NCBI GenBank assembly: GCA_964468755.1
Contig: CAYXWH010000003.1
Location: 8,421 to 72,420, forward strand
Length of the DNA stretch: 64,000 bases
Direction: 5' to 3'
Origin: an uncultured Dehalococcoidaceae bacterium
Lineage (GTDB): Bacteria; Chloroflexota; Dehalococcoidia; Dehalococcoidales; RBG-16-60-22
The position numbers were made by a program, and so were the translations under genes. Shown here piece by piece: positions 6,906 through 64,000 of the stretch. Numbering within the stretch: the first letter of the stretch is position 1; each line of letters starts with the position of its first letter. A model generated the notes under the pieces. That model worked only from the letters and a program-made list of their open reading frames with translations. It was not told where the DNA came from and did not search any database.

Positions 6906-6939
6906 CTCAGTTAATACCCTCCAAATAATTCTTGCTACC

Positions 6940-6968
6940 AATTAAAAAAGTGGGATTCAAACCCACTT
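6940..6968 (-). terminator. intrinsic terminator/attenuator hairpin in the nusA leader
   Basis: The reverse strand reads AAGUGGG-UUUGAAU-CCCACUU followed by UUUUUUAAUU. It lies ~35 nt upstream of the nusA ATG and ~20 nt downstream of the predicted promoter. Confidence 0.5.
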
Positions 6969-6994
6969 GACTAATACACTATCTTGATGAGAAA

Positions 6995-7023
6995 AGTATA
7001 GCACAGCCGTGCCTTTTGTGCAA
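6995..7023 (-). promoter_or_regulatory. sigma70-type promoter for the nusA operon
   Basis: Reverse strand: TTGCAC (7023-7018), 17-nt spacer, TATACT (7000-6995). Confidence 0.45.
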
Positions 7024-7158
7024 GATATCCGCCGGTAAATTCGCCTTGCGGATGACCGTACCGCGTGTCTAAAAATCAGTTTATAGCCACGTTATGCTAT
7101 CGTTATGCTATAATGTACAATATGTTCATGGACTCCAGGCAACTGACAAATTTACGGG

Positions 7159-10420: not shown

Positions 10421-10441
10421 GACGAAATCTGAGGAGAGTCA

Positions 10442-11416: not shown

Positions 11417-11429
11417 CCAGAGGTAAGCG

Positions 11430-35690: not shown

Positions 35691-35814
35691 ATTTAATCAT
35701 TATATAAAGCATTTCCGGTAATACGAATCGAAAACACCTGCCTTCGAATTAAATTACCAGTCTGAGCAATTCTTGCGGAGTTGCAGGTTTTATGTTACTC
35801 AAAGCAAGGTTTTC

Positions 35815-36603: not shown

Positions 36604-36695
36604 GCACCTGGCTTTTTACTTTATCCCATTAGAGACTATAAAACACCGGTACCAAAAACGGGTAAAAACAAAATAATAATGTGAGGAGGTTTCCT

Positions 36696-38459: not shown

Positions 38460-38489
38460 ACGGAGCCGAACCGGAAAACACGGGGTTAC

Positions 38490-40463: not shown

Positions 40464-41218
40464 GTATTAACATTGCCGTAGCCGGGAAAGGCGGTAGCGG
40501 AAAATCCTCCGTTGCCAGCCTGATTATCCGTTTTCTGAAGCAGAATGGAAAGACCCCCATTCTGGCGGTTGACGCTGACCCCAATGCCAACCTGGCAGAA
40601 GGTCTGGGACTTGAGGTAACCGAGACGGTAGGTCGTATACTAAACGATTTTCAGGGTATCAAATTGAAAATACCGCCGGGAATGACCAAAGAGGCGTATC
40701 TGCAATACCAGCTCAATACCGCCATAGTGGAAAGTACCGGTCTTGACCTGCTGACCATGGGACGGGGTGAAGGCCCGGAATGCTACTGCTACCCCAATGT
40801 GGTTATCCGCAAGCTTATCGACGAACTCTCCGGGAACTATGCCTGTGTGGTCATGGATAATGAGGCGGGCATGGAACATCTCAGCCGGAGAACCACCCAG
40901 AATATAGATGAGCTTATTCTCGTCTCCGATCACTCCATAAAGGGAATACGAGCCATCTCCCATATCAAGGAACTGGTCAGGGAGCTGAAGCTGGTAGTAA
41001 AAAGAGAATCGGTGATTATCAATTTCGTTGCCAACGGTATTGACCCCCTTCTCAACAAAGAGATGGAGCGACTGCACATTGCGCCGACGGCGACCATTCC
41101 TGTGGACGAGGATTTGCGGAGATTCGACCTTGAGCAAAAACCGCTCTTTGAAATGCCAGACACCTCGAAGGCGGTTATAGCAGTCAATGAGCTTATGAAT
41201 ACGTTATTGCCAAAGTAA
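40460..41218 (+). CDS. second CooC/AcsF-type Ni-insertion ATPase
   Basis: 252-aa ORF with a TTGA overlap. INIAVAGKGGSGKSS and the ECYCYPN CxC motif. Confidence 0.8.
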   Translation: MSINIAVAGKGGSGKSSVASLIIRFLKQNGKTPILAVDADPNANLAEGLGLEVTETVGRILNDFQGIKLKIPPGMTKEAYLQYQLNTAIVESTGLDLLTMGRGEGPECYCYPNVVIRKLIDELSGNYACVVMDNEAGMEHLSRRTTQNIDELILVSDHSIKGIRAISHIKELVRELKLVVKRESVIINFVANGIDPLLNKEMERLHIAPTATIPVDEDLRRFDLEQKPLFEMPDTSKAVIAVNELMNTLLPK

Positions 41219-41253
41219 AAACTTTGTAATTCTTTACAATAAAGGGGTGGAAA

Positions 41254-42141
41254 ATGACAGCACAAATTATCAGTGGCACGGAAATTGCCAAACAGATTCG
41301 CGAGGAGCTTAAACAGGAGATTGCCGAGCTGAAAGAAAAGCACAACCTTGTGCCCGGCCTGGTTACCGTGCTGGTGGGCGCAGACCCCGCCTCACAGGTA
41401 TATGTCGGGCAGAAGGAAAAAACCTCCAACGCCCTGGGTATATACTCGGAACGGTATGACCTGCCGGAGGAGACTACCCAGCAAGAACTACTGGCTCTGA
41501 TCGATAAACTGAACAACGACCCCAAGATTCACGGGATTCTGGTTCAACTCCCCCTGCCCAAACACCTGAACGAGGAGGAAGTCCTTTATGCTATTAACCC
41601 CGTGAAAGATGTTGATGGCTTCCACCCGGTAAATGTAGGTAAACTGATGATAGGTGAACCAAACTACCTGCCCTGTACCCCGGCAGGCATCCAGCAGCTG
41701 CTTATCCGTTCCGGTGTAGAAACGGAAGGAGCCGAGGTAGTGGTTGTCGGCAGGAGTAACATCGTGGGTAAACCGATTGCCAATATTCTCCTTCAGAAAG
41801 CACCGGGAGCTAACGCCACGGTTACTTTATGCCACACCAGAACCCGCGATATTTCCTTTCACACCAAGCTAGCTGATATAATAATAGTAGCTGCCGGTAA
41901 ACCGAAAGCGATAACTGCCGACATGGTTAAAGAGGGAGTAGTTGTTATTGATGTCGGTGTGAACCAGGTGGGCACAACGCCGGAGGGCAAGCGAATACTC
42001 GCCGGTGACGTTGATTTTGATACCGTGAAAGAAAAGGCAAAGGCCATCACCCCGGTACCCGGTGGTGTGGGCCCAATGACCATAACCATGCTCATGAAAA
42101 ACACCGTAAAGGCAGCCAAACTGGCGGCTGGTCTAACCTAG
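41254..42141 (+). CDS. folD: bifunctional methylene-THF dehydrogenase / methenyl-THF cyclohydrolase
   Basis: 295-aa ORF with LVGADPASQVYV, HGILVQLPLP, VVGRSNIVGKP and PVPGGVGPMT. Confidence 0.95.
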   Translation: MTAQIISGTEIAKQIREELKQEIAELKEKHNLVPGLVTVLVGADPASQVYVGQKEKTSNALGIYSERYDLPEETTQQELLALIDKLNNDPKIHGILVQLPLPKHLNEEEVLYAINPVKDVDGFHPVNVGKLMIGEPNYLPCTPAGIQQLLIRSGVETEGAEVVVVGRSNIVGKPIANILLQKAPGANATVTLCHTRTRDISFHTKLADIIIVAAGKPKAITADMVKEGVVVIDVGVNQVGTTPEGKRILAGDVDFDTVKEKAKAITPVPGGVGPMTITMLMKNTVKAAKLAAGLT

Positions 42142-42155
42142 GCAAAGGAGGAACC

Positions 42156-42374
42156 ATGGAATATAAAATTGAGAAGGTGAAAGCTCCGGGCAGGGATGAT
42201 GTGGAGTTGCTGGGCGCAACCTATGAACCGGGTAGACCTGAGGGAGAGGAAATCGGACAGTGGCGGCAGAAGCTTGAGAGCCGGGAGGAAAAGCTCAGGT
42301 ATCTGCAAAACGGAGAGCGTTACTGGTATGGGAAAGACTGGTTTGGTAGCGAAAAGAGAAAAAACCCGGCTTAG
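42156..42374 (+). CDS. small charged hypothetical protein inside the acs operon
   Basis: 72-aa ORF with a strong RBS (AAAGGAGGA, 5-nt spacer) and a 14-nt gap from folD. No recognisable motif, no Cys, and no TM segment. Confidence 0.45.
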   Translation: MEYKIEKVKAPGRDDVELLGATYEPGRPEGEEIGQWRQKLESREEKLRYLQNGERYWYGKDWFGSEKRKNPA

Positions 42375-42387
42375 TTAAGGAGGGGAA

Positions 42388-43335
42388 ATGGCATTTGAAA
42401 AACCAAAAACGGCATACAGCGGTAAAATCAAGGAAATCACCTTAAGTAAGGGGGAAAAGGCGGTAACTGTGGGTGGCGAGACAGCCTACCCGTTTTATCT
42501 CTTCGAAGGAGAGATGCCCAAACTCCCCAGAATCGCCATGGAGGTTTATGACTGCCCCCCCGAGGAGTGGCCCGAAGCCGCCCTGGAACCCTTTGCCGGG
42601 GTAACCGATGACCCCGTTGCCTGGGCGCAAAAGTGCATCAATGACTATGGCGCCGAGATGATATGCCTTCAGTTGCTCAGTACCGACCCCAACGGTCTTG
42701 ACCGAGATGCTGACGAAGCCGCCGCCGTGGTCAAGAAGGTAGCTGACGCCATCGATGTACCGCTTATTGTGTGGGGTACCGCCAACCATGAGAAAGACAC
42801 CGAAGTCTTAAGAAAAGTTGCTGAGCTCTGCCAGGACAAAAACCTGATTCTGGGGCCGGTTGAGGAAGGTGACCACAAGCGGATCGGTGCCGCAGCTATT
42901 GGCTACAAGCATACGGTAGCTGCCTCCACTCCCATCGATATTAACCTCGCCAAGCAGCTCAATATTCTACTGGGTAACCTCGGTGTTCCCGATGAACAGC
43001 TTATCATTGACCCCACGGTCAGCGGCATTGGCTACGGAATCGAGTACTGTTACTCGGTGATGGAACGAATACGGATGGCCGCTCTGACCCAGCAGGACGA
43101 AAAGCTCCAGTTCCCGATTATCTGCAATATAGCCAAAGAAACATGGAAAACCAAGGAAGCCAAACTGTCAGCCGAAGAGGCTCCCGGCATGGGAGACCCT
43201 AAAAAGAGAGGCATTTTACTAGAGGCTACGTCTACCATGACTTTACTACTGGCCGGAGCCGATATCCTGGTCATGAGGCATCCCGAAGCCATCGAGCTGG
43301 TCCGGGAGATGATATCCGAGCTGACTGCTTCCTGA
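42388..43335 (+). CDS. acsD: corrinoid iron-sulfur protein small subunit (AcsD/CdhD)
   Basis: 315-aa ORF with VTVGGETAYPF and a TIM-barrel pattern. Position is within the acs cluster. Confidence 0.85.
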   Translation: MAFEKPKTAYSGKIKEITLSKGEKAVTVGGETAYPFYLFEGEMPKLPRIAMEVYDCPPEEWPEAALEPFAGVTDDPVAWAQKCINDYGAEMICLQLLSTDPNGLDRDADEAAAVVKKVADAIDVPLIVWGTANHEKDTEVLRKVAELCQDKNLILGPVEEGDHKRIGAAAIGYKHTVAASTPIDINLAKQLNILLGNLGVPDEQLIIDPTVSGIGYGIEYCYSVMERIRMAALTQQDEKLQFPIICNIAKETWKTKEAKLSAEEAPGMGDPKKRGILLEATSTMTLLLAGADILVMRHPEAIELVREMISELTAS

Positions 43336-43365
43336 GATACTAACCAAAAATGGGAGGATAAGTAA

Positions 43366-45336
43366 ATGGCAGAAGAGGAAAAGAAACAAAAAAGCATAGA
43401 TCAAGCCAGCAATGAGCTGATAGAAAAGGCAGCCAAGGATGGGGTTAACACTGCCTTTGACAGAGCCGAAGCAATGAAGCCATGCCCCATAGGCGCAGTG
43501 GGTAGCTGTTGTAAAAACTGCGGTATGGGTCCCTGCCGGGTACCTTTACCCAAGGGGAAAGAGGAAACCCCGGAGGAAAAGAAGAAAAGGCGTGGTATCT
43601 GCGGAGCTACCGCCGAGACCATCGCCGCCCGTAACTTCATCCGCATGGTAGCCGGCGGGGCATCAGCCCACTCCGACCACGGCCGGGGAGTGGCTGAACT
43701 CTTCCTGGCAGTAGCCAGGGGAGAAGCACCGGGTTACGAGATTAAAGATGAGCAGAAACTACTGCAGCTTGCTCTGGAATGGGGCGTGGAAATCGGTGAA
43801 CGGAGTAACAACGAGATAGCTGTTGACATCGGTGAGAAGGCTCTGTCGGAGTTCGGCAAGCAGGAGGGTGAGCTCATAACCCTGAAAAAGGCCCCGCTAA
43901 AGCGCCAGGAGCTATGGCGGCAGCAGGGCATTGCCCCGAGGGGCATAGACAGAGAGATTGTGGAGATAATGCACCGCACTCATATCGGCGTTGACCAGGA
44001 CTACCCAAGCCTGCTCAAACAGGGAGTGAGGGCAGCCATAGGCGACGGCTGGGGCGGCAGCATGATTGCCACCGAGCTCCAGGATATTCTCTTCGGCACC
44101 CCAACACCGATACTGGGCAAGGCAAACCTGGGGGTGCTCAAAGAAGATGAAGTGAACCTCGTCATTCACGGGCATGAGCCTCTCCTCTCCGAGATGATAG
44201 TCGCTGCGGCTCAGGACCCGGAAATGGTGAAACTGGCTGAGTCCAAGGGAGCAAAAGGGATAAACCTGTCCGGTATGTGCTGCACCGCCAACGAGATATT
44301 GATGCGGCACGGAGTGCCCATCGCCGGGAACTTCCTGCAACAGGAACTGGCGATAGTAACCGGAGCGGTTGATGCCATGGTGGTGGACGTACAGTGCATC
44401 ATGCAGTCCATACAAACCGTAGCTGAGTGCTATCACACCAAAATCATCACCACCTCTCCCAAAGCCAAAATCACGGGTGCTCTGCATATAGAATTTGATG
44501 AGCACGATGCCCTCAAGTCGGCGCGGGAAATAGTAAAGCTAGCCATAGAGAACTTCCCTAACAGGAAGTCAAATATATATATCCCTGACGTGCAGACCGA
44601 CCAGATTGCCGGATTCAGCCATGAGACCATCAACTACCTGCTGGGCGGGATGTTCCGGGCTTCCTACCGGCCGCTTAACGACAACATCATCAACGGTCGC
44701 ATCAGGGGAGTAGCCGGTGTTGTCGGCTGCAATAACGCGCGTGTCAAGCACAACGAGCCCCACGTTACCATGGTCAAGGAGCTGATAAAGAATGATGTAC
44801 TGGTGATTACCACCGGCTGCAATGCCATTGCCTGTGCTGAAGCCGGGCTGATGGTCCCCGAAGCTGCCAGAGAGTTTGCCGGTGAAGGACTTGCCGAGGT
44901 CTGTGAAACGGTGGGCATCCCGCCGGTGCTGCACATGGGCTCCTGCGTTGACAACAGCCGCATCCTGATAGCTGCCACCGCCATGGTCAAGGACGGCGGA
45001 CTGGGCGACGATATCAGTGAACTACCGGTAGCCGGGGCTGCCCCCGAGTGGATGAGTGAAAAAGCCATTTCCATCGGGCAGTACTTCGTCGCCTCCGGCG
45101 TCTATACCGTGTTCGGTGTTACCTGGCCTACCGAAGGCAGCAAAGAGGTCACCGATTACCTGTTCAAGGACATGGAGCAGATGGTCGGCGGCATGTGGGA
45201 CTTTGAGCCTGACCCGGTTAAAGCCGCCCAAAAGATGATTGAGCACATTGACAAGAAACGCAAGGCATTGGGCATCGACAAGGCCAGGGAGAGAGTACTC
45301 TACGACATGGAGATGAGGCGCGAGATGGAAGGCTAG
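43366..45336 (+). CDS. acsA: anaerobic carbon-monoxide dehydrogenase catalytic subunit
   Basis: 656-aa ORF with the N-terminal Cys cluster CPIGAVGSCCKNCGMGPCRV and the internal HGHEP and SGMCCTANE motifs of Ni-CODH. Confidence 0.92.
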   Translation: MAEEEKKQKSIDQASNELIEKAAKDGVNTAFDRAEAMKPCPIGAVGSCCKNCGMGPCRVPLPKGKEETPEEKKKRRGICGATAETIAARNFIRMVAGGASAHSDHGRGVAELFLAVARGEAPGYEIKDEQKLLQLALEWGVEIGERSNNEIAVDIGEKALSEFGKQEGELITLKKAPLKRQELWRQQGIAPRGIDREIVEIMHRTHIGVDQDYPSLLKQGVRAAIGDGWGGSMIATELQDILFGTPTPILGKANLGVLKEDEVNLVIHGHEPLLSEMIVAAAQDPEMVKLAESKGAKGINLSGMCCTANEILMRHGVPIAGNFLQQELAIVTGAVDAMVVDVQCIMQSIQTVAECYHTKIITTSPKAKITGALHIEFDEHDALKSAREIVKLAIENFPNRKSNIYIPDVQTDQIAGFSHETINYLLGGMFRASYRPLNDNIINGRIRGVAGVVGCNNARVKHNEPHVTMVKELIKNDVLVITTGCNAIACAEAGLMVPEAAREFAGEGLAEVCETVGIPPVLHMGSCVDNSRILIAATAMVKDGGLGDDISELPVAGAAPEWMSEKAISIGQYFVASGVYTVFGVTWPTEGSKEVTDYLFKDMEQMVGGMWDFEPDPVKAAQKMIEHIDKKRKALGIDKARERVLYDMEMRREMEG

Positions 45337-45373
45337 GCTTCCTGCGCCACAGTAATAAGGAGGTTACGAGGAC

Positions 45374-47581
45374 ATGTCTAAAATAATTGCATCGGCAGCC
45401 ATCAGGGGTGCCCATAAAATTGTAGACCAAGCTGACAAGAAGTGGCAGGAAGCAATGGACAAGTGGGGAGCCAACGAACCGGTCGGCTTCCCCAACACCG
45501 CGTATTATCTGCCGGTTATCTACGGGATTCTGGGGGAAAAGGTGGAAAAACTGGGAGATATGGAAAAGGTACTTAAAAAGTGTAAAACCATACTCCCGCC
45601 GCCGGTGCGGGAAAACCATCCCCTGCCCTACCTAGCTCCGGCACTTGATGCCGGGATGGCAACCTTCTTTGCCGAGGAACTTATCGAAGCGATAAGATAT
45701 CTGGAGCAGCCAGACTTTTACATCAAAGGTGAAGATGTTGCCGATAGTAATATATGGCTGGGAGCCGCTGACGATGTCATTCTCAGAAAGAGAGGCGTCG
45801 AGTTCGTTGACGGTACGGCACCGGGCTTTGCGGCGATTCTTGGGTCGGCTCCGACCAGTGAGATAGCTGCCAAAATCGCTCAAGAACTCCAGGAGAAGAA
45901 CCTTTATGTTTTCATGTCGGCTGAGTACAACGGCAAGAGGTTCTCCGAGCAACTCGTCGAAGCCGGAGTGCAGATAGGTTGGCCTACCCGCCTCGTTTCG
46001 TTCGGGCCTGAGGTCAGTGCTACCGTATTTGCTGCCGGCTTTGCCACACGAGCGGCCCTTTCCTTCGGCGGCGTCGAGCCGGGCGAATATCGTAAAATAC
46101 TTATCTATAATAAAGATAGAATATTCGCGTTTGCCATGCCACTGGGCTATGTTACCGATGAATGGTATGCCAACGCTGCCGGCGCTATCAATTTCGGCTT
46201 CCCTACTATTGCCGATACCCCCATACCTGAAGTACTGCCCACCGGCATCTGCACCTATGAGCATGTCGTTTCCAATATCCCCCATGATGAGCTGGTCGCC
46301 AAGGCTATTGAGGTACGAGGGCTCAAGGTAACCGTTACCGAGCTTCCCATTCCGGTATCTTTCGGTGCCGCTTTCGAGGGGGAAAGAGTCCGCAAGGAAG
46401 AGTTCTACCTGGAAGCCGGCGGTAACCGGACGCCGATGTGTGAGTGGTGCACCAGCAAACGAATGGACGAGGTCGAGGATGGCAAGATTGAGGTAATCGG
46501 CCCCGAGATAGACGACGTGGAAGTGGGAACGGCTGTACCCTTGGCAATTGTGGTTGAGGTAGCCGGACGGGAAATGCAAGAGGACTATGAGCCCATACTG
46601 GAGCGCCAGATACACCACCTGATTAACTACGCCCAGGGGGTGTGGCACCAGGGGCAAAGAGATACCGCCTGGCTGCGCATCAGCAAGACAGCCAAGGAAA
46701 AGGGCTTCAAGCTGGAACACATCGGCACCTTGCTCCACGCCAAGCTCCACCAGGACTTCGGGCGGATTTTTGATAAGCTTCAGGTCAAGCTCTACACCAA
46801 AGATGATCAAGTAAGGAAGGCAGTAGAACAGGCAAAAGAAGTCTATGCCCATCGTGATGCCCGTATTGAAGGCATGACTGACGAGACAACTGATACCTAC
46901 TATTCCTGCACGCTATGTCAGTCTTTCGCCCCCAGTCACGTCTGCGTTATCAGTCCCGAAAGGACCGGGCTTTGCGGCTCCTACAACTGGATGGACTGCA
47001 AGGCCGCCTACGAGATTAATCCCACCGGCCCCAACCAGCCGGTAGAAAAGGGGAAAGTCATTGACGCCAAGCTGGGACAATGGCTTGGGGTCAACGGGTT
47101 TGTCCAGAAGGCTTCCCGCGGTAAGATAGACCATTACAACTTCTATAGCATCATGATTGACCCGATGACCACCTGCGGCTGTTGTGAATGTATCGCCGCC
47201 GTCCTGCCCATGTGCAACGGCATCATGACGGTGAACCGCGAATATACCAAGGAGACCCCCTGCGGGATGAAATTCACCACGCTGGCGGGTACTATCGGCG
47301 GCGGTATCAGCACCCCCGGCTTCGTCGGTCACGGCAAGTATAATACCACCCAGCGCAAATTCATCAAAGGCGACGGTGGCTTGCTCCGGGTGGTTTGGAT
47401 GCCAACATCGCTTAAGGAGGAGATTGGTGACCGTATCAAAGCCAGGGCTGAGGAATTGGGAGTACCCGACCTCCTCGACAAAATTGCCGATGAGACAGTA
47501 GGAACCACTGAAGAGGAAATTATACCATTCCTGCAAGAGAAAGGGCACCCGGCCCTTACCATGGAATCGATACTAGGTTAG
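45374..47581 (+). CDS. acsB: acetyl-CoA synthase (A-cluster subunit)
   Basis: 735-aa ORF with CQSFAPSHVCVISPERTGLCGSYNW and TTCGCCEC (A-cluster ligands). Confidence 0.93.
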   Translation: MSKIIASAAIRGAHKIVDQADKKWQEAMDKWGANEPVGFPNTAYYLPVIYGILGEKVEKLGDMEKVLKKCKTILPPPVRENHPLPYLAPALDAGMATFFAEELIEAIRYLEQPDFYIKGEDVADSNIWLGAADDVILRKRGVEFVDGTAPGFAAILGSAPTSEIAAKIAQELQEKNLYVFMSAEYNGKRFSEQLVEAGVQIGWPTRLVSFGPEVSATVFAAGFATRAALSFGGVEPGEYRKILIYNKDRIFAFAMPLGYVTDEWYANAAGAINFGFPTIADTPIPEVLPTGICTYEHVVSNIPHDELVAKAIEVRGLKVTVTELPIPVSFGAAFEGERVRKEEFYLEAGGNRTPMCEWCTSKRMDEVEDGKIEVIGPEIDDVEVGTAVPLAIVVEVAGREMQEDYEPILERQIHHLINYAQGVWHQGQRDTAWLRISKTAKEKGFKLEHIGTLLHAKLHQDFGRIFDKLQVKLYTKDDQVRKAVEQAKEVYAHRDARIEGMTDETTDTYYSCTLCQSFAPSHVCVISPERTGLCGSYNWMDCKAAYEINPTGPNQPVEKGKVIDAKLGQWLGVNGFVQKASRGKIDHYNFYSIMIDPMTTCGCCECIAAVLPMCNGIMTVNREYTKETPCGMKFTTLAGTIGGGISTPGFVGHGKYNTTQRKFIKGDGGLLRVVWMPTSLKEEIGDRIKARAEELGVPDLLDKIADETVGTTEEEIIPFLQEKGHPALTMESILG

Positions 47582-47596
47582 TAAGGAGGTTTGTAG

Positions 47597-48943
47597 ATGG
47601 CACTAACCGGAATAGAGATATTTAAATTACTACCCAAGACCAATTGCGGTGAGTGCGGGGTACCCACCTGTCTCGCCTTCGCCATGAACCTGGCGGCAGG
47701 TAAAGCCGAGCTCTCTGCCTGCCCCTATGTGTCCGAAGAGGCACGGGAAAAGCTATCGGAAGCTGCGGCGCCACCAATCCTGCCGGTTACCATTGGCACG
47801 GGGGAGAGAGCCCTGAAGATTGGCGGTGAGACGGTCATGTTCCGTCATGAAAAAAGGTTCGAGAATCCTCCCGGCATAGCCATCCTGGTCAGCGACAGCA
47901 TGGATGCCGCTGAAATCGATGCCAGGATAGACAAATGCAACACGATGCAGTATGAGAGAGTCGGCCTTATCCTCCGCCCCGACCTGATAGCGGTAAAAGA
48001 TGATTCCGGGGACGCAGCGAAGTTTACCGCTCTTGCCAGCAAAGTCAAGGAAAAGAGCGACGCCGGATTTATCCTGATAAGCGACAACCCGGATATCCTC
48101 GCCGCTGCGGTGAAGGACTGTGCCGACCGCAAGCCGCTGCTCTATGCCGCCACCAAGGATACCGTCGACCGTATGGCTGAGCTAGCCAAGGAAAGCTCCT
48201 GTCCACTGGCGGTAAAAGGGGCAAACCTCGAAGAACTGGCGGAAATAACCGAAAAACTCACTGCCGACGGAATCAAAAACCTGGTCATTGACTCTGGCTC
48301 GAGAACCCTCAAGCAGGCATTTGAAGACCAGATAATGATTAGAGGCGCCGCCCTTAACAAGAAGTTCCGTCCGCTGGGATACCCCACCATCACCTTCCCC
48401 GGAGAGATGACTGATAATCCCATGAAAGAAGCGATGCTCGCTGCTATGTTCATCGCCAAGTATGCCGGTATCATCGTTCTCTCTGACTTCCGGGGCGAAA
48501 GTCTTTTCCCATTGCTGGTGGAGAGGCTTAATGTTTATACTGATCCGCAGCGTCCGCTGGCGACTACTGAAGGAATCTACGAAATCAATAATCCCAAAGA
48601 GGACTCACCCCTATTGATTACTACTAACTTCTCGCTTACCTACTTCATTGTCTCTGGTGAACTTGAAAACAGCAGGGTACCCAGCTGGCTGCTGGTCAAG
48701 GACACTGAAGGACTTTCCGTGATGACCGCCTGGGCAGCCGGAAAATTCTCTGCCGATATCATCGGTCCTGCGGTCAAAAAGAGTGGTGTAGCCGACAAGA
48801 TCAAGCACCAGAAGCTGATTATCCCCGGCTACGTCGCCGCTGAAAGTGGGGGTCTGGAAGAAGAATTACCTGGCTGGGAAATCATGGTTGGACCCAGGGA
48901 AAGTGCTCACCTCCCAGCCTATCTTAAGACTTGGAAGCCTTAG
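47597..48943 (+). CDS. acsC: corrinoid iron-sulfur protein large subunit (AcsC/CdhE)
   Basis: 448-aa ORF with the N-terminal [4Fe-4S] motif LPKTNCGECGVPTCLAFAMNLA. Confidence 0.9.
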   Translation: MALTGIEIFKLLPKTNCGECGVPTCLAFAMNLAAGKAELSACPYVSEEAREKLSEAAAPPILPVTIGTGERALKIGGETVMFRHEKRFENPPGIAILVSDSMDAAEIDARIDKCNTMQYERVGLILRPDLIAVKDDSGDAAKFTALASKVKEKSDAGFILISDNPDILAAAVKDCADRKPLLYAATKDTVDRMAELAKESSCPLAVKGANLEELAEITEKLTADGIKNLVIDSGSRTLKQAFEDQIMIRGAALNKKFRPLGYPTITFPGEMTDNPMKEAMLAAMFIAKYAGIIVLSDFRGESLFPLLVERLNVYTDPQRPLATTEGIYEINNPKEDSPLLITTNFSLTYFIVSGELENSRVPSWLLVKDTEGLSVMTAWAAGKFSADIIGPAVKKSGVADKIKHQKLIIPGYVAAESGGLEEELPGWEIMVGPRESAHLPAYLKTWKP

Positions 48944-48952
48944 GAGGAAATA

Positions 48953-49828
48953 ATGATCCTTATCGGAGAAAGCATAAACGTAGTATCAAAGACCATCGGA
49001 CCAGCGATGAAAGAGAGAAATCCGAAGCCTATTCAGGAGATGGCCAAGGCCCAAGCTGAAGCCGGCGCGGACTATCTTGACGTCAATATTGGACCCGCCC
49101 GCCGAAACGGTGAGGAACTAATGGAATGGGTAGTCAACACCGTGCAAGAGGTAACCGATCTGCCATTATCATTGGACACCACCAATCCATCAGCCATGGA
49201 GGCAGGGCTAAAGGTATGCAAGAGCAAGGCATTAATTAATTCTATCTCTGTAGTCAGGATGGATGAAGAATTACCCCTTGCTCAACAATACAATGCCGAC
49301 TTCATCGGGCTCCTGTGGGGGCGTGAAGGAATGCCCAGGGACGCTGACGAAAGAGCCATGATAGCCCTTGAACTCACCACCACAGCCAACGGAATGGGTA
49401 TACCCAACGAGCGTACCTGGCTTGACCCCATTGTCACGCCGGTAGTCAACATTGAGTCAAACCAAGCCAAGCCATGCCTGGAGTTCATGATGAGTGCGGC
49501 TGATGTCATCCCGGGATGTAAATCGGTGGTAGGCTTATCCAACGTTTCCAACGGTGCCCCTACCCACCTCCGCCCTCATCTCAACCGGACCTACCTGATA
49601 ATGCTGATGCGCTACGGGGTGTACTCCGCCATCGCTGACGTCTTCGATAAGGAGTTAGTATCAATCGCCAGGGGTGAGATGCCGGAAATTGCTGACCTGG
49701 TCTATCGCGTAATGAATGGCGACACACCGGATATGTCCTCATTGAACCGGAAGGAACGGGAATATGTAAAGACAGCCACGGTTATCACCGGAGAATCACT
49801 CTATTCTCATTCCTGGCTTGAGATATAG
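48953..49828 (+). CDS. acsE: methyl-THF:corrinoid/iron-sulfur protein methyltransferase
   Basis: 291-aa ORF starting MILIGESINV...PIQEMAKAQAEAGADYLDVNIGP (pterin-binding TIM barrel). Confidence 0.85.
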   Translation: MILIGESINVVSKTIGPAMKERNPKPIQEMAKAQAEAGADYLDVNIGPARRNGEELMEWVVNTVQEVTDLPLSLDTTNPSAMEAGLKVCKSKALINSISVVRMDEELPLAQQYNADFIGLLWGREGMPRDADERAMIALELTTTANGMGIPNERTWLDPIVTPVVNIESNQAKPCLEFMMSAADVIPGCKSVVGLSNVSNGAPTHLRPHLNRTYLIMLMRYGVYSAIADVFDKELVSIARGEMPEIADLVYRVMNGDTPDMSSLNRKEREYVKTATVITGESLYSHSWLEI

Positions 49829-51037: not shown

Positions 51038-51054
51038 GCTAAGAGGTGCGTCAA

Positions 51055-52995
51055 GTGAACTTCGAGGAGTTACAAAAAAAGGCAACCGCCGAGTGGCAAT
51101 CACTGAGCAATCTGGACCACCCGCATATCATCATCGGGACGGCTACCTGCGGTCGTGCCGCCGGAGCGATGGGTGTTATCGCTGCCATCAAGAATGAGCT
51201 TGCCAAACACAACATCCCGGCAACCATCACCCAGGTCGGCTGCATTGGCATCTGCTATGCCGAACCGCTGGTCGAGATAGCCAAGCCGGACCGGCCTCAT
51301 ATCGTCTATGGTAACGTTACCCCGAAAATGGTCCCCCAGCTTATCGAAGACTACCTCTTGCATGATAACCCTCATCCCGAACTGGCGATGGGTACTGTCG
51401 GTGAAGAGACTATCGAGGGAATTCCCCGGTTATGGGAGTTGCCTATACTGAAACCACAGGTACGAATATCGCTGCGAAATTGCGGGATTATCGACCCGGA
51501 GAAAATCGACCATTATATTGCCCGTGACGGTTATAGCGGGCTGGTAAATGCCCTGAAAAAGAGCCCGCAAGAAGTGATTGACGAAATAAAGAAATCAGGA
51601 CTGCGTGGTCGTGGTGGCGCCGGCTTTCCCACCGGCATGAAGTGGCAGTTCTGCCGTGACGCTCAGGGAATACCCAAGTACCTGATTTGCAATGCCGACG
51701 AAGGTGACCCCGGCGCCTTCATGGACCGGTCGCTGCTGGAAAGTGACCCCCATGCCGTGCTGGAGGGGATGCTCATCGGCGCCTATGCCATGGGCGCTAA
51801 CGACGGCTATCTTTACTGCCGTGCCGAGTACCCGCTGGCTATCGAACGGCTCAAGCTGGCGCTCCAGCAGATGGAAGCCTACGGACTGATTGGCGATAAT
51901 ATCCTCGGCACGGATTTCAGTTTCCACATCAAGATTAAAGAAGGCGCCGGCGCCTTTGTCTGCGGTGAAGAGACTGCCCTTATCGCCTCCATCGAGGGCA
52001 AGCGAGGTATGCCCCGCTCCCGTCCTCCCTTCCCCGCTCAGTCCGGTCTCTGGGGAAAACCGACCAATATCAATAACGTGGAGACGTGGGCTAATGTCTC
52101 CGCCATATTACAGCACAGCGGCGACTGGTATGCCGGTTACGGTACCGAAAAAAGCAAGGGCACCAAGACCTTTGCGCTGGCCGGAAAGATAAACCGTACC
52201 GGACTTATCGAAGTGCCCATGGGTATATCCCTCCGTGAAATCATTTACGGCATCGGTGGCGGTATACCCGGCGGTAAAGAATTCAAGGCGGTGCAGACCG
52301 GCGGACCTTCCGGCGGCTGCCTGCCCGCTACCCTGCTTGACCTGCCCGTTGAATATGAGTCCCTGGCCGAGGCCGGGGCTATCATGGGTTCGGGCGGCAT
52401 GGTGGTTATGGACTCGGACACGTGCATGGTTGATATCGCCCGCTACTTCCTGTCGTTTACCCAGTCGGAATCATGCGGGAAGTGTGTCCCCTGCCGGGTC
52501 GGTACCAAGCACATGCTGGACATCCTGGAAAAAATAACCCGGGGCGAAGGCACACCGGAAGATGTTGACCTGCTGCTCAATCTCGGTAAATCAATTAAGG
52601 TGGGGGCACTCTGCGGACTGGGACAGACAGCGCCCAATCCGGTGCTTACCACCTATCGCTACTTTGCTGATGAATATGAAGCGCATACCCGGGACAAGAT
52701 ATGCCCGGCTTTAGCCTGCACCGATCTGATTACTTTTTATATCCTGGCGGATAAGTGCCAGGGATGCGGCATTTGCCTGCGAAGTTGTCCGGCTGAAGCC
52801 ATCACCGGCGCCAAGCGACTGGTGCACGTCATTGACCAGAGTAAGTGTATCAAATGCGGCACCTGTCTTGAGGTCTGCCCCACCAAGTTCAGCGCAGTGG
52901 TCAAGGTCTCCGGAGAGGAAATAGCCGTGCCCAGTGAGCCGGTCCCGGTTACCGCCGCCAGACCCACCGCCGGCACAACGGCTCAAGATGAATGA
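51055..52995 (+). CDS. NuoF/HydB-like NAD(P)H-binding flavoprotein with extra FeS domains
   Basis: GTG at 51055 (or 51046). N-terminal thioredoxin-like [2Fe-2S] region (GTATCGRAAGA...GCIGICYAEP), GLRGRGGAGFPTGMKW (FMN/NADH site), CGKCVPCRVGT, and a C-terminal 2x[4Fe-4S] domain (CQGCGICLRSCP, CIKCGTCLEVCP). Confidence 0.9.
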   Translation: MNFEELQKKATAEWQSLSNLDHPHIIIGTATCGRAAGAMGVIAAIKNELAKHNIPATITQVGCIGICYAEPLVEIAKPDRPHIVYGNVTPKMVPQLIEDYLLHDNPHPELAMGTVGEETIEGIPRLWELPILKPQVRISLRNCGIIDPEKIDHYIARDGYSGLVNALKKSPQEVIDEIKKSGLRGRGGAGFPTGMKWQFCRDAQGIPKYLICNADEGDPGAFMDRSLLESDPHAVLEGMLIGAYAMGANDGYLYCRAEYPLAIERLKLALQQMEAYGLIGDNILGTDFSFHIKIKEGAGAFVCGEETALIASIEGKRGMPRSRPPFPAQSGLWGKPTNINNVETWANVSAILQHSGDWYAGYGTEKSKGTKTFALAGKINRTGLIEVPMGISLREIIYGIGGGIPGGKEFKAVQTGGPSGGCLPATLLDLPVEYESLAEAGAIMGSGGMVVMDSDTCMVDIARYFLSFTQSESCGKCVPCRVGTKHMLDILEKITRGEGTPEDVDLLLNLGKSIKVGALCGLGQTAPNPVLTTYRYFADEYEAHTRDKICPALACTDLITFYILADKCQGCGICLRSCPAEAITGAKRLVHVIDQSKCIKCGTCLEVCPTKFSAVVKVSGEEIAVPSEPVPVTAARPTAGTTAQDE

Positions 52996-55760
52996 GACAC
53001 GACATGGAAAAAATCACCCTGACCATTAACGGTCAGAAAGTCGAAGCGGAAAAAGGGATGACTGTTCTTGAAGCCGCCACTGCGGCTGGTATTTACATCC
53101 CCACGCTCTGCTATCATCCTGACCTGCAACCGTACGGCGGCTGCCGCCTGTGTGTCGTCGAGATTGAAAATGTCCGCGGTTTGCCTACTTCCTGCACCAC
53201 CCCCGCCACCGACGGCATGGTGGTCACCACGGAGTCCGAGGCTATCAACGAGGTACGCCGTACCTCTCTGGAACTGATACTGGCTAACCACCCCTGCGAA
53301 TGCCTGCTCTGTCACCGCCGCGACCGCTGCCAGCCTAATGATATATGTTTGCGCCACGTGGCGGTAACTGACCGCTGCGTGGTCTGCCCGCGAAACGGGC
53401 ACTGCGAGCTCCAGCAGGTAGTCGACTACCTTGGGGTGCATGAGTTACATATCAGCATGGACAAGAAGAGAGTACCGATAGACACCAGCAATCCCTTTTT
53501 CGATATTGACCGTAACCGCTGCATTCTCTGCGGCCGTTGCGTGCGTACCTGCCAGGAGATAACCTGTGCCGGGGCAATTGACATGTCCTATCGCGGCTAC
53601 TCCATGAAGGTAGCGACCTTCGGTGACACGCCACTGATGGACTCCACCTGCCGTTCCTGCGGTGAATGCATGGTCCGCTGTCCGGTAGGCGCCATTGTTC
53701 CCAAAAACACCGGTCAGGCGGAAACAGAGGTGTTAACCGTATGTCCTTACTGCGGAGTCGGCTGCCAGATGTATCTGGGTATTGCCGACGACCATATAGT
53801 GGGAGTCCGCGGTGATGAAGCAGGCCCGGCCAATCAGGGGCTGCTCTGTGTAAAAGGACGCTTTGGTATTACCGAGTTTGTCCACCACCCCGAGCGCCTG
53901 ACCACTCCCCTCATCAAGAGGAACGGTCACTTTGAAGAAGCTTCCTGGGAAGAGGCACTGGCGCTGGTAGCCAGCAAGCTGGAGAATTATGAAAGTGACC
54001 AGGTGGCAGTCATCTCTTCCGCCAAGTGCACCAACGAGGACAACTATGTAGCCCAAAAATTCGCCCGGGCGGTGCTGGGCACCAACAATGTCGACCACTG
54101 TGCCCGCCTCTGACATTCCCCCACAGTGGCCGGTCTGGTCACTACCCTCGGCAGCGGAGCCATGACCAACTCCATCTCCGATATAAAGGACGCCGCCTGT
54201 ATCCTCTCCATCGGCAGCAATACCACTACCTCCCACCCGGTAATCGGCATGCGGGTGCTCCAGGCGGTACAGAAAGGTACCAAACTGATTGTCGCCAATC
54301 CCCGGGAAATTGACCTTGTCCGCTATGCTGACCTGTGGCTGCGGCACCGCTCCGGCACCGATGTCGCCCTGCTCATGGGCATTATGAAGATAATCGTTGA
54401 TGAAGGATTAGCCGACGACAGCTTTATCCAGCAGCGGTGCGAGAATTTTGACGCTTTTCGAGAATCATTAAACGATTATCCCCTTGATACAGTGGAGCGA
54501 ATTACCGGGGTACCGGCCGACCGGATAGTTGCCGCCGCCAGGATGTACGCTACGAATAGTCCGGCATCCCTCCTCTATGCGATGGGCATTACCCAGCACT
54601 CTCACGGGACCGACAACGTCATTGCTACCGCCAATCTGGCGATGCTTACCGGCAATATCGGTAAGCCGGGGAGCGGGGTAAACCCGCTCCGCGGGCAGAA
54701 TAATGTGCAGGGTGCGTGTGACGTGGGCGCCCTGCCCAATGTCTATCCCGGCTACCAGTCGGTTGCCGACCCGGCAATCCGGGAGAAATTCGAGAATGCC
54801 TGGGATTACCGGCTGAACCCTGCCCCGGGAATGGTGCTCACCGAGATTATCCCCGCCGCTTATGAAGGCAAGATAAAGGCAATCTATCTCATCGGGGAAA
54901 ACCCCATCCTCAGCGACCCGGATGCCAGCCATGTTGAAGAAGCATTGAAGCACCTGGATTTCTTCGTCGTTCAGGACATTTTCCTTTCGGAGACAGCGAA
55001 ACTGGCTGACGTTGTTTTACCGTCAACCACTTTCGCTGAAAAGGAAGGCACTTACACCAATACCGAGCGCCGCGTGCAACTGTCACAAAAAGCCATCAAT
55101 CCGGCAGGTAGCTGCAAGCCCGACTGGTGGATTACCCGGCAGATTGCCCAGCGGATGGGTGGCAAGGGATTTGAGTACCAGAATCCCGCTCAGATTATGC
55201 AGGAAATAGCCAGATTGACCCCCAGCTATGGAGGTATTTCCTTCGAGCGCCTCGAAAGAGAAGGCGGCTTGCAGTGGCCCTGCCCCACCGAAGAACACCC
55301 CGGAACGCCCATTCTGCATACCGCTCAGTTCACCCGGGGTAAGGGAAGGTTTATACCACTGGAATACAAGCCTCCCATGGAACTCCCCGATGATGAGTAC
55401 CCGCTGATTCTCACCACCGAGCGCGACCTGTTCCACTTCCACACCGGCACCATGACACGAAAAGTCAAGGGCCTCAACACCTTCCGGTCGGAAGAGTTCG
55501 TGCAGATAAGTCCGCAGGACGCCGAGTCGCTCAACATCATGGATGGTGACATGGTACAGGTGACTTCCCGTCGCGGTGAGGTGACCGCCAGAGCACAGCT
55601 TACCGACATTTCCCCGGTTGGCGTCATTTCGATGACCTTTCACTTTGCGGAAAGCCCCACCAATAAAGTGACCAGCCCGGCACTTGACCCGGTAGCCAAG
55701 ATACCTGAGTTCAAGGTAGCAGCGGTAAGAATCAAGAAAAGCGAATTAGTACCCCGATAA
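52992..55760 (+). CDS. fdhA: formate dehydrogenase catalytic subunit, selenocysteine-containing (TGA at 54111-54113 read as Sec)
   Basis: ORF-track entries 52992..54113 and 54126..55760 are in the same frame, separated only by TGA plus 12 nt. Read-through gives [30 protein letters not shown]. The N-terminal part carries NuoG-like 2Fe-2S and 4Fe-4S motifs and CPYCGVGCQM. The C-terminal part is the Mo/W-bisPGD domain. Total 922 aa. Confidence 0.88.
54125..54143 (+). other. SECIS-like hairpin
   Basis: AGUGGCC-GGUCU-GGUCACU: a 7-bp stem with one G-U pair and a GGUC-containing apical loop. It begins 11 nt after the UGA, the same spacing and loop sequence as I recall for the E. coli fdhF SECIS. 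Confidence 0.6.
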
Positions 55761-59645: not shown

Positions 59646-59649
59646 TAAC

Positions 59650-60672: not shown

Positions 60673-60685
60673 ATGGAGCAGAGCC

Positions 60686-61587: not shown

Positions 61588-62469
61588 CTACGATGAAATA
61601 CCGGCGGCGTCCAGTATCTGCGGTACCCTTTTCTCCCAGCCGATAGCCATAATATGCACCCCCTGGCAGAGGTCCTTCAAGTCCTTAATCAGGTTCGCCG
61701 CGATTTCTATGCCGGTTGCCGCCCGGTCTTCCGCCTCAGCCATCCTGGCTATCAGCTCTTCCGGCACGAAGACACCGGAGACATTCTTGTTCATAAACCG
61801 CGCCATACCGGCTGACTTGAGCGGGATTACCCCTGCCAGAACCGACACGCCCAGTCCCTCCACCCGCTTCATGAATCGGGCAAAGTGGTCGACATCATAG
61901 ACCGCCTGCGTCTGGAAGAACCTCGCCCCGGCTTTAATCTTCTTCTCCATCTTCACCAGCTGCAGCTCCATGGCAGCTTCGGTGTCCGACTCAACTTTTA
62001 CCACGGCTCCGGGGAAGAAATCCGGCTTGCCCTTTAGTTCATTGCCAACGATGTCATATCCGGCATTCAACCGGCTTATCGTCCACAGGAGCTGTACCGA
62101 GTCCAGATCAAAGACCGGCTTTGCCTGGGGATGGTCACCCAGCGCGGGCAGGTCCCCGGTAATAGCCAGCACGTTCTTGATACCCATAACCCAGGCACCC
62201 AGCAAATCTGACTGCAAGGCTATGCGGTTCCTGTCCCGGCAGGTCATCTGAAAGATAGGCTCCAGCCCTCTCTCCGCCAGCAAATGGGCAACAGTAAGTG
62301 AACCCAGTCTCATCACCGAGCTTTGCTGGTCAGTGACGTTAGCCGCAGTCACTTTGCCTTTAAGAATCTCCGCCACTTCCTCAATCTCGGTGGTATCGGT
62401 TCCCTTCAGGGGGCCCACCTCAGCGGTAATGACAAATTTCCCGGCTTCCAGTTCTGATTGCAAGCTCAC
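61588..62469 (-). CDS. metF: methylenetetrahydrofolate reductase
   Basis: 293-aa ORF with a MetF TIM-barrel pattern (FVITAEVGPLKGTD...NVLAITGD...FFQTQAVYD). 4-nt overlap with metV. Confidence 0.9.
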   Translation of the reverse strand: MSLQSELEAGKFVITAEVGPLKGTDTTEIEEVAEILKGKVTAANVTDQQSSVMRLGSLTVAHLLAERGLEPIFQMTCRDRNRIALQSDLLGAWVMGIKNVLAITGDLPALGDHPQAKPVFDLDSVQLLWTISRLNAGYDIVGNELKGKPDFFPGAVVKVESDTEAAMELQLVKMEKKIKAGARFFQTQAVYDVDHFARFMKRVEGLGVSVLAGVIPLKSAGMARFMNKNVSGVFVPEELIARMAEAEDRAATGIEIAANLIKDLKDLCQGVHIMAIGWEKRVPQILDAAGISS

Positions 62470-63155
62470 TTTACTTTCTCCTCCTGGTCATATTGCTCCA
62501 GTGCATAGCGTGAGGTGGATAGCAGCGCCGGTTTCGCCATTAACTTACTGTTATCCAGGGGTTCAATAAATACCCTGAGCTTGTCAAGCTGTCCTTTGGC
62601 TTTCAGTCGTTGATAGATCAGCTCCCATCCACAGTCCCGCTTGGGGTCAAGCTCACATTTCCCGTTGGACGCTCCGCCACAGGCACCACTCACCAGGCCC
62701 TTGGTGCACGCCGTGAGCGGGCATATGCCCCCGGTATAGTCGAGGAGGCACTGACCGCATTCCTGGCACCGTTCACTGCCCTGCCATTCCCCCCGGCTCC
62801 CGCCCAGGTTAATGGTATTGCAGGCCGGATGGCAGACCTTGTTTACCGAGGCGGCAACCGCCTGAACACCAACACCACAGGTCATAATCAGAATAGAGTC
62901 GGCAGCGGCAACCTCGTCAATCCTGCCCCTGAGCCCCGACTTTACCAGAGCCTTCTCACAGAGAAAATCGATGACCTTGGTACCGGTGACGTTTTTTCCG
63001 GCTTCTTCCAGCTTCTGCTTCATCTCGGCAACCTGCTGCGGACCGCCGCTGCCTGACGACTGGGCGCAGCCATTGCAGCCCAGGATAAAAACGTTCTTTT
63101 CCCCCTCTAAATAACCCAGTATCTCGTCAAATGGTTTTTGCTCCGAAAGAATCAT
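62466..63155 (-). CDS. metV: MTHFR small Cys-rich subunit (MetV; MTHFR C-terminal-domain protein)
   Basis: 229-aa ORF with MILSEQKPFDEILGYL, GCNGCAQ, and CGQCLLDYTGGICPLTACTKGLVSGACGG...GKCE. Strong RBS AAGGAGGT. Confidence 0.8.
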   Translation of the reverse strand: MILSEQKPFDEILGYLEGEKNVFILGCNGCAQSSGSGGPQQVAEMKQKLEEAGKNVTGTKVIDFLCEKALVKSGLRGRIDEVAAADSILIMTCGVGVQAVAASVNKVCHPACNTINLGGSRGEWQGSERCQECGQCLLDYTGGICPLTACTKGLVSGACGGASNGKCELDPKRDCGWELIYQRLKAKGQLDKLRVFIEPLDNSKLMAKPALLSTSRYALEQYDQEEKVK

Positions 63156-63172
63156 GTTACCTCCTTATGCGG

Positions 63173-64000
63173 TTACACTACCCGGAACTTACCCAGGTCT
63201 CTCCCCCGGGGGGTAACCATATGAACAGCACAGGCAAGACAGGGGTCAAAGGAACGGATGATACGTACGATTTCAAAGGGGTTGCTCTCATCCTTTACCC
63301 CGGTACCTATTATCGCCTGCTCGATTGGCCCGTGGTTACCGCTGTCATCCATCGGCGATACATTCCAGGTGGTCGGTACCACGCACTGGTAATTGGCGAT
63401 CTTCTTGTCCTCTATCTCAATCCAGTGACCGAGGGCGCCACGAGCGGCTTCAGTCAGTCCCATACCCGTGGCCTGGTCGGGAATCTCATACTCAACGAAG
63501 GTCGGCTCTCCCGGCTTCAACGCCAGCAGCCACTGGTCCATAGTATCGGCGATAAACTTGGCGGACAGCGCCCGTGCCAGATGGCGCCCCATTACCGAGA
63601 ACAATGCTGACGGGGATGCCTTGAGCTGATTGAGAGCACCGTTAACCAGTTCAGTCATTCCGGCATCACCGCGGGCATAGGTAACCGCCACCCTGGCCAG
63701 CGGGCCCACCTCATAGACTTTGCCATCATAGCGAGGCGCTTTTACCCACGAATAAGCGCCGTCCTTGCCATACCTCGGGGTCGTCTCTCCCTGAGCGGGA
63801 TGCCTGCCGGTGGTGGCATCTTCATACCAGGAATACCTGACATACTCGGCTATCTTATCCGTATCCAGGTCACCCGTTTTAAGGTCGCTGGACAGGGTAC
63901 CCTGCTGGAACAAGCGATTCCGCCGGGTATAATCCGGATTATCGCCCACAAGGTCAAAACCGCCATACGACAGCAGGTTCCGACAGCCCACCCCGATTTC
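63173..64000 (-). CDS. [NiFe]-hydrogenase large subunit, C-terminal part (gene continues beyond window end)
   Basis: The frame is open to position 64000. YSWVKAPRYDGKVYEVGPLARV is present, and the C-terminal Ni-binding motif DPCLACAVH is followed by a 15-aa extension (protease-cleaved tail). Confidence 0.88.
   Translation of the reverse strand, partial: EIGVGCRNLLSYGGFDLVGDNPDYTRRNRLFQQGTLSSDLKTGDLDTDKIAEYVRYSWYEDATTGRHPAQGETTPRYGKDGAYSWVKAPRYDGKVYEVGPLARVAVTYARGDAGMTELVNGALNQLKASPSALFSVMGRHLARALSAKFIADTMDQWLLALKPGEPTFVEYEIPDQATGMGLTEAARGALGHWIEIEDKKIANYQCVVPTTWNVSPMDDSGNHGPIEQAIIGTGVKDESNPFEIVRIIRSFDPCLACAVHMVTPRGRDLGKFRVV

Follow-up and report, generated by a model that had tools for sequence, protein, structure and literature searches.

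The window analysed here is a stretch of 64,000 nucleotides from an uncultured Dehalococcoidaceae bacterium (contig CAYXWH010000003.1, positions 8,421 to 72,420). Its right end carries, on the minus strand, three genes that bring together a [NiFe]-hydrogenase and a methylene-tetrahydrofolate reductase (MTHFR). The hydL gene encodes the hydrogenase large subunit, while metV and metF encode the two subunits of an MTHFR of the MetVF type. The features, with the scores of their domain matches, are as follows.

63173..64000, minus strand: 3' part of hydL, [NiFe]-hydrogenase large subunit (PF00374, 302 bits)
63156..63172, minus strand: hydL–metV spacer, 17 nt, CCGCATAAGGAGGTAAC
62466..63155, minus strand: metV, iron–sulfur (Fe-S, small) subunit of the MetVF-type MTHFR, 229 residues (PF12225, MTHFR_C/DUF5981 domain, 102.7 bits)
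61588..62469, minus strand: metF, flavin (large) subunit of MTHFR, 293 residues (PF02219, 148.9 bits)

The window end cuts hydL, leaving residues 245–519 of 519 (275 codons). The protein ends in SFDPCLACAVH followed by a 15-residue extension, MVTPRGRDLGKFRVV, and a TAA stop codon at 63175–63173. Direct reading of the spacer reveals a ribosome-binding site, AAGGAGGT, at 63166–63159. Starting with GTG, metF shares 4 nt (GTGA) with the end of metV, including its stop codon. The PF02219 match spans MetF residues 3–290, that is, the full length; the MTHFR part of NF006396 scores 241.7 bits, and there are distant matches to solved MTHFR structures. All these junctions had been noted in a preliminary description made from the letters of the window, and they are present as described, as is the lack of a maturation protease or mvhB-type gene between hydL and metV in the window. 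A promoter or terminator in the spacer, which would have spoken against co-transcription, was not seen in a consensus scan, although the scan performs at chance level and the consensus may not apply to the Chloroflexota.

The part upstream of the window end, hydS and the 5' part of hydL, is known not from the window itself but from a near-identical contig, L001 (ENA ERZ27256778, 35.9 kb), which was retrieved by searching for the exact MetV protein sequence. L001 and the window align without gaps over 11,535 nt, at 99.84 % identity. In L001, hydS (297 residues), encoding the small subunit, is directly followed by hydL (519 residues), metV and metF. The preliminary description had anticipated a small subunit gene together with mvhD and hdr genes upstream; the former is found, whereas the hydrogenase operon contains none of the latter.

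Conservation of the linkage and its Wood–Ljungdahl context

With each GTDB species represented by a single genome, a scan yielded 80 loci with HydL identity of 65–84 %. The 81st, L004, comes from a Chloroflexota metagenome-assembled genome (MAG) found by protein look-up, and the neighbours were surveyed by phmmer. According to the record titles as deposited, the loci belong to Dehalococcoidales/Dehalococcoidia, Gaiellales/Actinomycetota, Syntrophaceae/Thermodesulfobacteriota, Acidobacteriota and Anaerolineae; all carriers are MAGs. The gene orders are distributed as follows.

hydL-metV-metF: 59 of 81 loci
hydL-hycI-metV-metF: 9 of 81 loci
hydL-metV followed by the contig end: 6 of 81 loci
metV directly 5' of hydS (Anaerolineae type; HdrA fusion and MvhD also present): 4 of 81 loci
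hydL-metV without metF: 1 of 81 loci (L004)
no DNA downstream of hydL: 2 of 81 loci

Hence hydL-(hycI)-metV-metF is seen in 68 of 81 loci, and metV adjoins hydSL in all 79 informative ones, directly after hydL in 75 and directly before hydS in four. The spacing is tight: the median hydL–metV gap is 18 nt in 66 related loci, and metV and metF overlap by 4 or 1 nt in most of the related loci. Judged by these gene orders, the adjacency of hydSL and metV is far beyond chance.

The module is often embedded in operons of the Wood–Ljungdahl pathway. In 26 loci the gene directly upstream of hydS on the same strand is acsE (14 loci; the order is acsB-acsC-acsE-hydS-hydL-metV-metF where there is sufficient upstream DNA) or folD (12 loci; fhs-folD-hydS-hydL-metV-metF, with fhs in several). 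Another five loci have cooC in this position. In Acetobacterium woodii the order is fhs-fchA-folD-rnfC2-metV-metF, RnfC2 being the NADH input module, and MetV of this organism has been termed "the entry point for electrons" (PMC3315566). Since the order acsE/folD-hydSL-metVF parallels folD-rnfC2-metVF of A. woodii, hydSL takes the slot of the input module.

The gene following metF encodes a DUF3786 protein in 19 loci. This protein (about 220 residues; e.g. L022, 11135–11845) often overlaps the metF stop codon where the module lies inside an acs operon. DUF3786 is a common member of Wood–Ljungdahl clusters, and the protein could be a further subunit or an accessory protein of the pathway.

Class and predicted location of the hydrogenase

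The full-length HydL of L001 scores 732.5 bits with NF033181 (cutoff 600), 568 bits with the HysA model, and 108.8 bits with the VhuA model (cutoff 800). The best PDB matches of both subunits are periplasmic [NiFe] and [NiFeSe] enzymes (1FRF, 1CC1, 2WPN). From these profile scores and structural matches, the hydrogenase is by sequence a member of group 1, closest to 1a/1b. The preliminary description expected an Mvh-like enzyme accompanied by mvhD and hdr; this is not borne out, an Mvh, or group 3c, identity being rejected on the model scores.

Both Ni-Fe ligand motifs, N-terminal RxCGxCxxxH (RICGVCPQSH in L001 HydL) and C-terminal DPCxxCxxH (DPCLACAVH in the window), are present in all complete family members. 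In HydS the ligands of the proximal, the medial and the His-ligated distal cluster are all in place, following the pattern CxGC...C...GCPPHP and then HxxC-x19-C-x5-C-x8-C-x18-CxxC, which is kept across the family. One position of the medial cluster (NW[V/C], about residue 252 of L001 HydS) varies: it is Val in the Dehalococcoidales and Actinomycetota (3Fe-4S type) and Cys in the Syntrophaceae and the clade with 65–68 % identity (4Fe-4S type, as in [NiFeSe] enzymes).

About 78 HydS homologues were searched for a twin-arginine translocation (Tat) motif, and none has one. HydS begins with MVKELPVIYLQTAACSGC, and in L001 translation could not start further upstream. In the alignment with the mature small subunit of Desulfomicrobium baculatum, residue 3 of HydS falls on residue 6, and profile matches begin past the signal region, at position 50 of TIGR00391 and position 38 of NiFeSe-small. 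Even from the most upstream start codon, the first CxGC occurs at residue 15–19 in most of the homologues. There is no membrane anchor at the HydS C-terminus, which has a conserved 20-residue tail instead. Further, none of 82 loci has a gene for cytochrome b, cytochrome c3 or a HybA-type protein adjoining the module; metV and metF stand there instead.

The nearest outgroups, judged by their signals and neighbours, retain the periplasmic design:

L085 (60 % identity): small subunit of 383 residues with SRREFLQ, and a HybA-like Fe-S protein
L086 (50 % identity): RRDFLK, with cytochrome b and hyp genes
L089 (49 % identity): cytochrome c3 genes on its flanks
L090 (49 % identity): small subunit of 385 residues

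Because HydS has no Tat signal while these outgroups carry one, the hydrogenase is predicted to be located in the cytoplasm. Membership in group 1 had been named in advance as an objection to coupling with MetVF, the topology of a periplasmic uptake enzyme being incompatible with a cytoplasmic complex. By sequence the enzyme does belong to group 1, but the objection from topology fails, as the small subunit has no Tat signal.

The 15-residue C-terminal tail of HydL occurs in the window and in 62 loci and is missing in 19. A gene for a HyaD/HybD-type protease adjoins the module in L004, L014, L088 and nine loci of the 65–68 % clade, where it stands between hydL and metV. In the tail-less loci (L042–L046, L048–L056, L062, L064, L065, L067 and L070) HydL, of 504 residues, stops at the His of DPCxxCxxH. 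In 12 of these 19 the hydL–metV gap is 55–61 nt, roughly what the common 17 nt and the 15 missing codons add up to; in the others it is 20–153 nt. This suggests a subclade of hydrogenases maturing independently of the protease.

MetV, the proposed reaction and its alternatives

Eight conserved cysteines are the criterion for MetV (PMC3315566), and in the hydrogenase-linked proteins eight C-terminal ones are invariant: Cys130, 133, 136, 145, 150, 159, 167 and 175. The linked MetVs form a separate clade (75 linked and two nearby), with at least 44 % identity inside it and at most 48 % identity to other MetVs in the same loci. An additional cysteine, Cys112, is invariant in the clade, which also has a GGsRGEW..ERCxEC motif and lacks Cys34, a residue typical of other MetVs. 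Pairwise distance matrices of HydL and MetV correlate at r = 0.88, compared with r = 0.92 for HydL and HydS. The separate, co-varying clade with motifs of its own is as expected for a docking partner of the hydrogenase.

A sequence search of the PDB found no MetV homologue, and a Foldseek comparison of the low-confidence MetV model with the PDB gave no match at E <= 0.001, only generic alpha/beta matches. The idea that the MetV N-terminal domain is an MvhD-like adaptor is not supported, hhalign against MvhD sequences giving a probability of 2.4 %.

The hydS-hydL-metV-metF module probably encodes a soluble cytoplasmic four-subunit H2:methylene-tetrahydrofolate (THF) oxidoreductase. H2 would be split at the [NiFe] site of HydL, and the electrons would run via the proximal, medial and His-ligated distal Fe-S clusters of HydS to the Fe-S clusters of the dedicated MetV, in place of a cytochrome. 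From MetV they would pass to the MetF flavin, at which 5,10-methylene-THF would be reduced to 5-methyl-THF for the Wood–Ljungdahl pathway. The sequences themselves show the genes present, their order and spacing, the missing Tat signal, the conservation, the setting in Wood–Ljungdahl operons and the separate MetV clade; that the four proteins form a complex, how the electrons travel, which way the reaction runs and that it does not bifurcate is what we infer. As for the origin, a periplasmic group 1 uptake hydrogenase may have lost its Tat signal and its cytochrome or HybA partner; the Tat-less enzyme may then have been inserted in front of metVF, in the slot of the NADH-oxidising RnfC2 of A. 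woodii. The direct coupling of a hydrogenase with MTHFR, proposed in the preliminary description, thus receives strong support from comparative genomics, the linkage being conserved, tight and situated in Wood–Ljungdahl operons, although the partners differ from those expected.

We calculated the energetics of the reaction from E0' values of -414 and -200 mV. For H2 and methylene-THF this gives -41 kJ/mol under standard conditions, -18 kJ/mol at 10 Pa H2 and -13 kJ/mol at 1 Pa. With -18 to -13 kJ/mol at 10–1 Pa, the module would allow uptake of H2 at subsurface concentrations and leave little room for bifurcation.

MTHFR arrangements are currently recognised as types I–IV, none of them with a hydrogenase (PMC8760232). 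Among the acetogen enzymes of types II–IV are MetVF of Clostridium ljungdahlii, RnfC2-MetVF of A. woodii, and MetVF-HdrABC-MvhD of Moorella thermoacetica and Sporomusa ovata (PMC8760232, PMC3315566). The module shares with them the MetF flavoprotein, the MetV with eight cysteines, metV directly 5' of metF, and the position in or next to Wood–Ljungdahl clusters; with the A. woodii system it also shares an input-module gene directly 5' of metV. It differs in that the input is a two-subunit [NiFe]-hydrogenase, so that H2 itself would take the place of NADH or ferredoxin as donor, in that the MetV clade lost Cys34 and gained Cys112, and in that the operon has neither HdrABC-MvhD nor RnfC2. None of the known inputs (none or ferredoxin, RnfC2, HdrABC-MvhD) matches the arrangement with hydS-hydL directly 5' of metV seen in 75 of 79 informative loci.

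From the side of the hydrogenase, the enzyme resembles the periplasmic groups 1a/1b (D. baculatum 1CC1, Desulfovibrio fructosovorans 1FRF, Desulfovibrio vulgaris HysAB) in the NiFe motifs, the three-cluster small subunit whose distal cluster is His-ligated, and the C-terminal extension that goes with a HyaD/HybD-type protease. It departs from them in lacking a Tat signal, an anchor and any gene for cytochrome c3, cytochrome b or HybA, its partners being metV and metF. Like MvhAGD-HdrABC of methanogens (group 3c), it is predicted to be a cytoplasmic [NiFe]-hydrogenase tied by Fe-S subunits to a terminal reductase of a C1 pathway; however, it comes from another hydrogenase lineage, and the conserved module has neither the bifurcating flavin protein HdrA nor MvhD. 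The proposed transfer between a hydrogenase and a Wood–Ljungdahl reductase via Fe-S subunits, with no soluble carrier, is similar to that in the hydrogen-dependent CO2 reductase (HDCR) of A. woodii and Thermoanaerobacter kivui, but HDCR pairs an [FeFe]-hydrogenase with a formate dehydrogenase and carries out the first, not the last, reduction of the methyl branch. Finally, groups 1h (Hhy) and 2a (Huc) are Tat-less uptake-type [NiFe]-hydrogenases acting on the cytoplasmic side as well; their matches are far weaker (5AA5 and 7UTD rank well below the group 1a/1b structures), and these enzymes occur in aerobes, are quinone-linked and are not tied to folate enzymes.

Sewell et al. described hdrABC-mvhD-metVF in marine Chloroflexi (PMC5736913). 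Hug et al. described group 1 hydrogenases of Dehalococcoidia without a canonical partner (PMC3971608). Searches of the full-text literature, from which subscription-only papers are excluded, turned up no description of a hydrogenase-metVF operon. The module would be a new combination of known parts, an MTHFR of the MetVF type and a group 1 hydrogenase, and a fifth arrangement. On balance, we lean towards a broader view, namely that HydSL-MetVF is a fifth, H2-dependent MTHFR type, in which a relocated periplasmic group 1 hydrogenase would dock its distal cluster on a specialised MetV. It would have spread as a unit among the Dehalococcoidia, Actinomycetota, Thermodesulfobacteriota, Acidobacteriota and Anaerolineae, would be a main entry of H2 into the Wood–Ljungdahl pathway in abundant uncultured subsurface bacteria, and would answer the question about the donor of MetVF for these lineages.

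What donates electrons to the MetVF-type MTHFR in the cell has long been a gap in the bioenergetics of acetogens, and the conserved hydSL-metVF offers a testable donor, H2 itself, for a large group of uncultured bacteria with the Wood–Ljungdahl pathway. The module also names a candidate for the missing redox partner of "Hup"-type group 1 hydrogenases in non-respiring Chloroflexi (cf. PMC3971608). Assignment to group 1 by sequence need not mean periplasmic respiratory H2 uptake, which is of consequence for metagenomic surveys in which group 1 genes are counted as respiratory hydrogenotrophy. H2 would be coupled directly to the most electropositive step of the Wood–Ljungdahl pathway, exergonic down to very low H2, and this could explain H2 use in the subsurface. 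If true, it would combine with HDCR into a methyl branch that H2 drives without carriers, and this could be of interest to biotechnology.

Several observations weigh against the H2-dependent oxidoreductase. An H2-driven MTHFR that conserves no energy wastes the most exergonic step of the Wood–Ljungdahl pathway, one to which models of acetogens usually assign energy conservation. The same organism has a second metV/metF set adjoining HdrA/NuoEFG genes. In L004, hydSL-metV occurs without metF, so that MetV could pass electrons elsewhere, and the same may hold for the four Anaerolineae-type loci, where a different MetV with HdrA-MvhD lies upstream of hydS. The assignment to group 1 is made from profile scores and PDB matches; the AlphaFold2 model of MetV, built from a low-diversity alignment of 37 sequences, has a mean predicted local distance difference test score of 53.6 and is too poor for docking; and all carriers are uncultured.

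The same complex could operate in reverse, oxidising methyl-THF and evolving H2 in a reversed Wood–Ljungdahl pathway, for instance in syntrophic oxidation of acetate or methyl groups. The module is found in MAGs of the Syntrophaceae/Thermodesulfobacteriota and of sediment Dehalococcoidia, where a reversed pathway has often been proposed, and the closest solved relatives of the enzyme are of the [NiFeSe] type; hydrogenases of this type are good H2 producers. The sequence favours neither direction. Nevertheless, reversal seems unlikely to us: by our calculation it stays endergonic until H2 falls below about 0.01 Pa (at a methyl- to methylene-THF ratio of 1) or about 1 Pa (at a 100-fold ratio), and the operon contains no energy-input module.

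Alternatively, the four proteins could be the core of a larger bifurcating complex, with H2 reducing both methylene-THF and ferredoxin or NAD(P)+ via HdrA, MvhD, NuoEF or the MetF flavin. Bifurcation had been suggested in the preliminary description, and it has been proposed for the type IV MTHFR (PMC8760232). HdrA-like and/or NuoEF genes lie 5' of hydS in L001, L023, L024 and L028; L072, L078 and L080 have a 1490-residue HdrA fusion followed by MvhD, MetV2, hydS and hydL; and in the window a MvhD-FeS-ShyB-ShyC operon converges on metF. However, HdrA, MvhD and NuoEF are not on the flanks of most loci with 7 kb of upstream DNA, and the MvhD operon of the window, encoded on the other strand, has counterparts only in L042 and L044. 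As these genes recur in few loci only, they were rejected as conserved partners. The conserved genes are hydS, hydL, metV and metF only, with no HdrA or other bifurcating flavoprotein among them, and the energy available at environmental H2 leaves little for the reduction of ferredoxin. The suggestion is thus unsupported in the operon, and we regard a bifurcating complex as doubtful.

The linkage could also reflect mere co-regulation of genes transcribed together, the hydrogenase reducing a soluble carrier such as ferredoxin and MetVF acting as a type II enzyme. Type II MetVF does accept reduced ferredoxin in vitro (PMC8760232), and L004 has no metF after metV. On the other hand, the linked MetVs form their own clade co-varying with HydL and keep their own conserved motifs. 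We know of no ferredoxin-reducing activity in a standard group 1 small subunit, and H2 at low pressure cannot reduce ferredoxin without coupling. Such a carrier-mediated link is improbable.

Finally, the idea that HydSL is an H2 sensor, like HupUV/HoxBC of group 2b, steering the expression of metVF or the Wood–Ljungdahl genes through the histidine kinase and two response regulators found 0.2–3.4 kb 5' of hydS in L001 and L006, hardly deserves credence and was rejected: 19 family members do lack the large-subunit extension in a sensor-like manner, but the window HydL has it, proteases adjoin the module in L004, L014 and the nine loci of the 65–68 % clade, the sequence places the hydrogenase with groups 1a/1b and not with group 2, and the kinase, situated inside the metV2-metF2 cluster, is missing from almost all other loci.

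Variant loci and neighbouring genes

The L004 locus (8577–12280) has the order hycI-hydS-hydL-metV, followed by unrelated genes on the opposite strand. In the Anaerolineae type (L072, L078, L080, and also L082) a HdrA fusion of 1330–1490 residues, MvhD and MetV2 precede hydS-hydL, with MetF2 about 2 kb downstream; L078 and L080 have in addition a MetV-MetF pair of the hydrogenase type about 4 kb downstream. This variant may be an H2-driven, Hdr-containing (bifurcating) version of the module. In L035, L048, L079 and L081, two metV genes stand in tandem between hydL and metF, the first of the hydrogenase type and the second divergent.

On a 2.0-Mb contig from a Chloroflexota MAG (L003, 2786–7203), the genes just 5' of hydS are nickel/cobalt uptake genes, for a LarC-type Ni-insertion protein, Fur, CbiM and an ABC ATPase. 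An HdrD-like protein, EtfBA, HdrA and MvhD are encoded 3' of metF. A more distant relative from a MAG labelled "bacterium" (L088, 2462–6418; 53 % HydL identity) has fchA-folD-hydS-hydL-hycI up to the contig end, its HydS having 277 residues and no Tat signal. Therefore the Tat-less lineage linked to the Wood–Ljungdahl pathway is broader than the 80 surveyed loci.

In L001, the region 5' of hydS (1–7349) contains genes for HdrA-like and NuoG-like proteins, NuoE, NuoF, MetV2, a histidine kinase, MetF2 and two response regulators. This second MTHFR cluster, with metV2 and metF2 split by the two-component system, is present in L006 too. A similar arrangement, a two-component system flanking metF_1, is known in the marine Chloroflexi cell DscP3 (PMC5736913).

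Other features of the window, all on the plus strand, are as follows.

35773..49828, plus strand: whole Wood–Ljungdahl cluster, 12 kb from metF (Pfam scan): cooC, fhs, RACo, cooC/acsF, folD, acsD, cooS/acsA, acsB, acsC, acsE
51046..55760, plus strand: 649-residue NuoF-like subunit and selenocysteine formate dehydrogenase (Pfam annotation of the same genes in L001)
58268–61558, plus strand: MvhD (141 residues), FrhB-like Fe-S protein (319 residues), ShyB/AsrA-like protein (353 residues), ShyC/AsrB-like protein (290 residues)

The last of these, the MvhD-FeS-ShyB-ShyC operon, has no hydrogenase catalytic subunit; its stop codon and that of metF are 29 nt apart. Possibly it serves a partner of the Hdr type as an NAD(P)H-linked module. 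The formate dehydrogenase alpha subunit has a NuoG-like N-terminus and an in-frame TGA at 54111–54113 (HCARL*HSPTVAGL), which is the selenocysteine codon.

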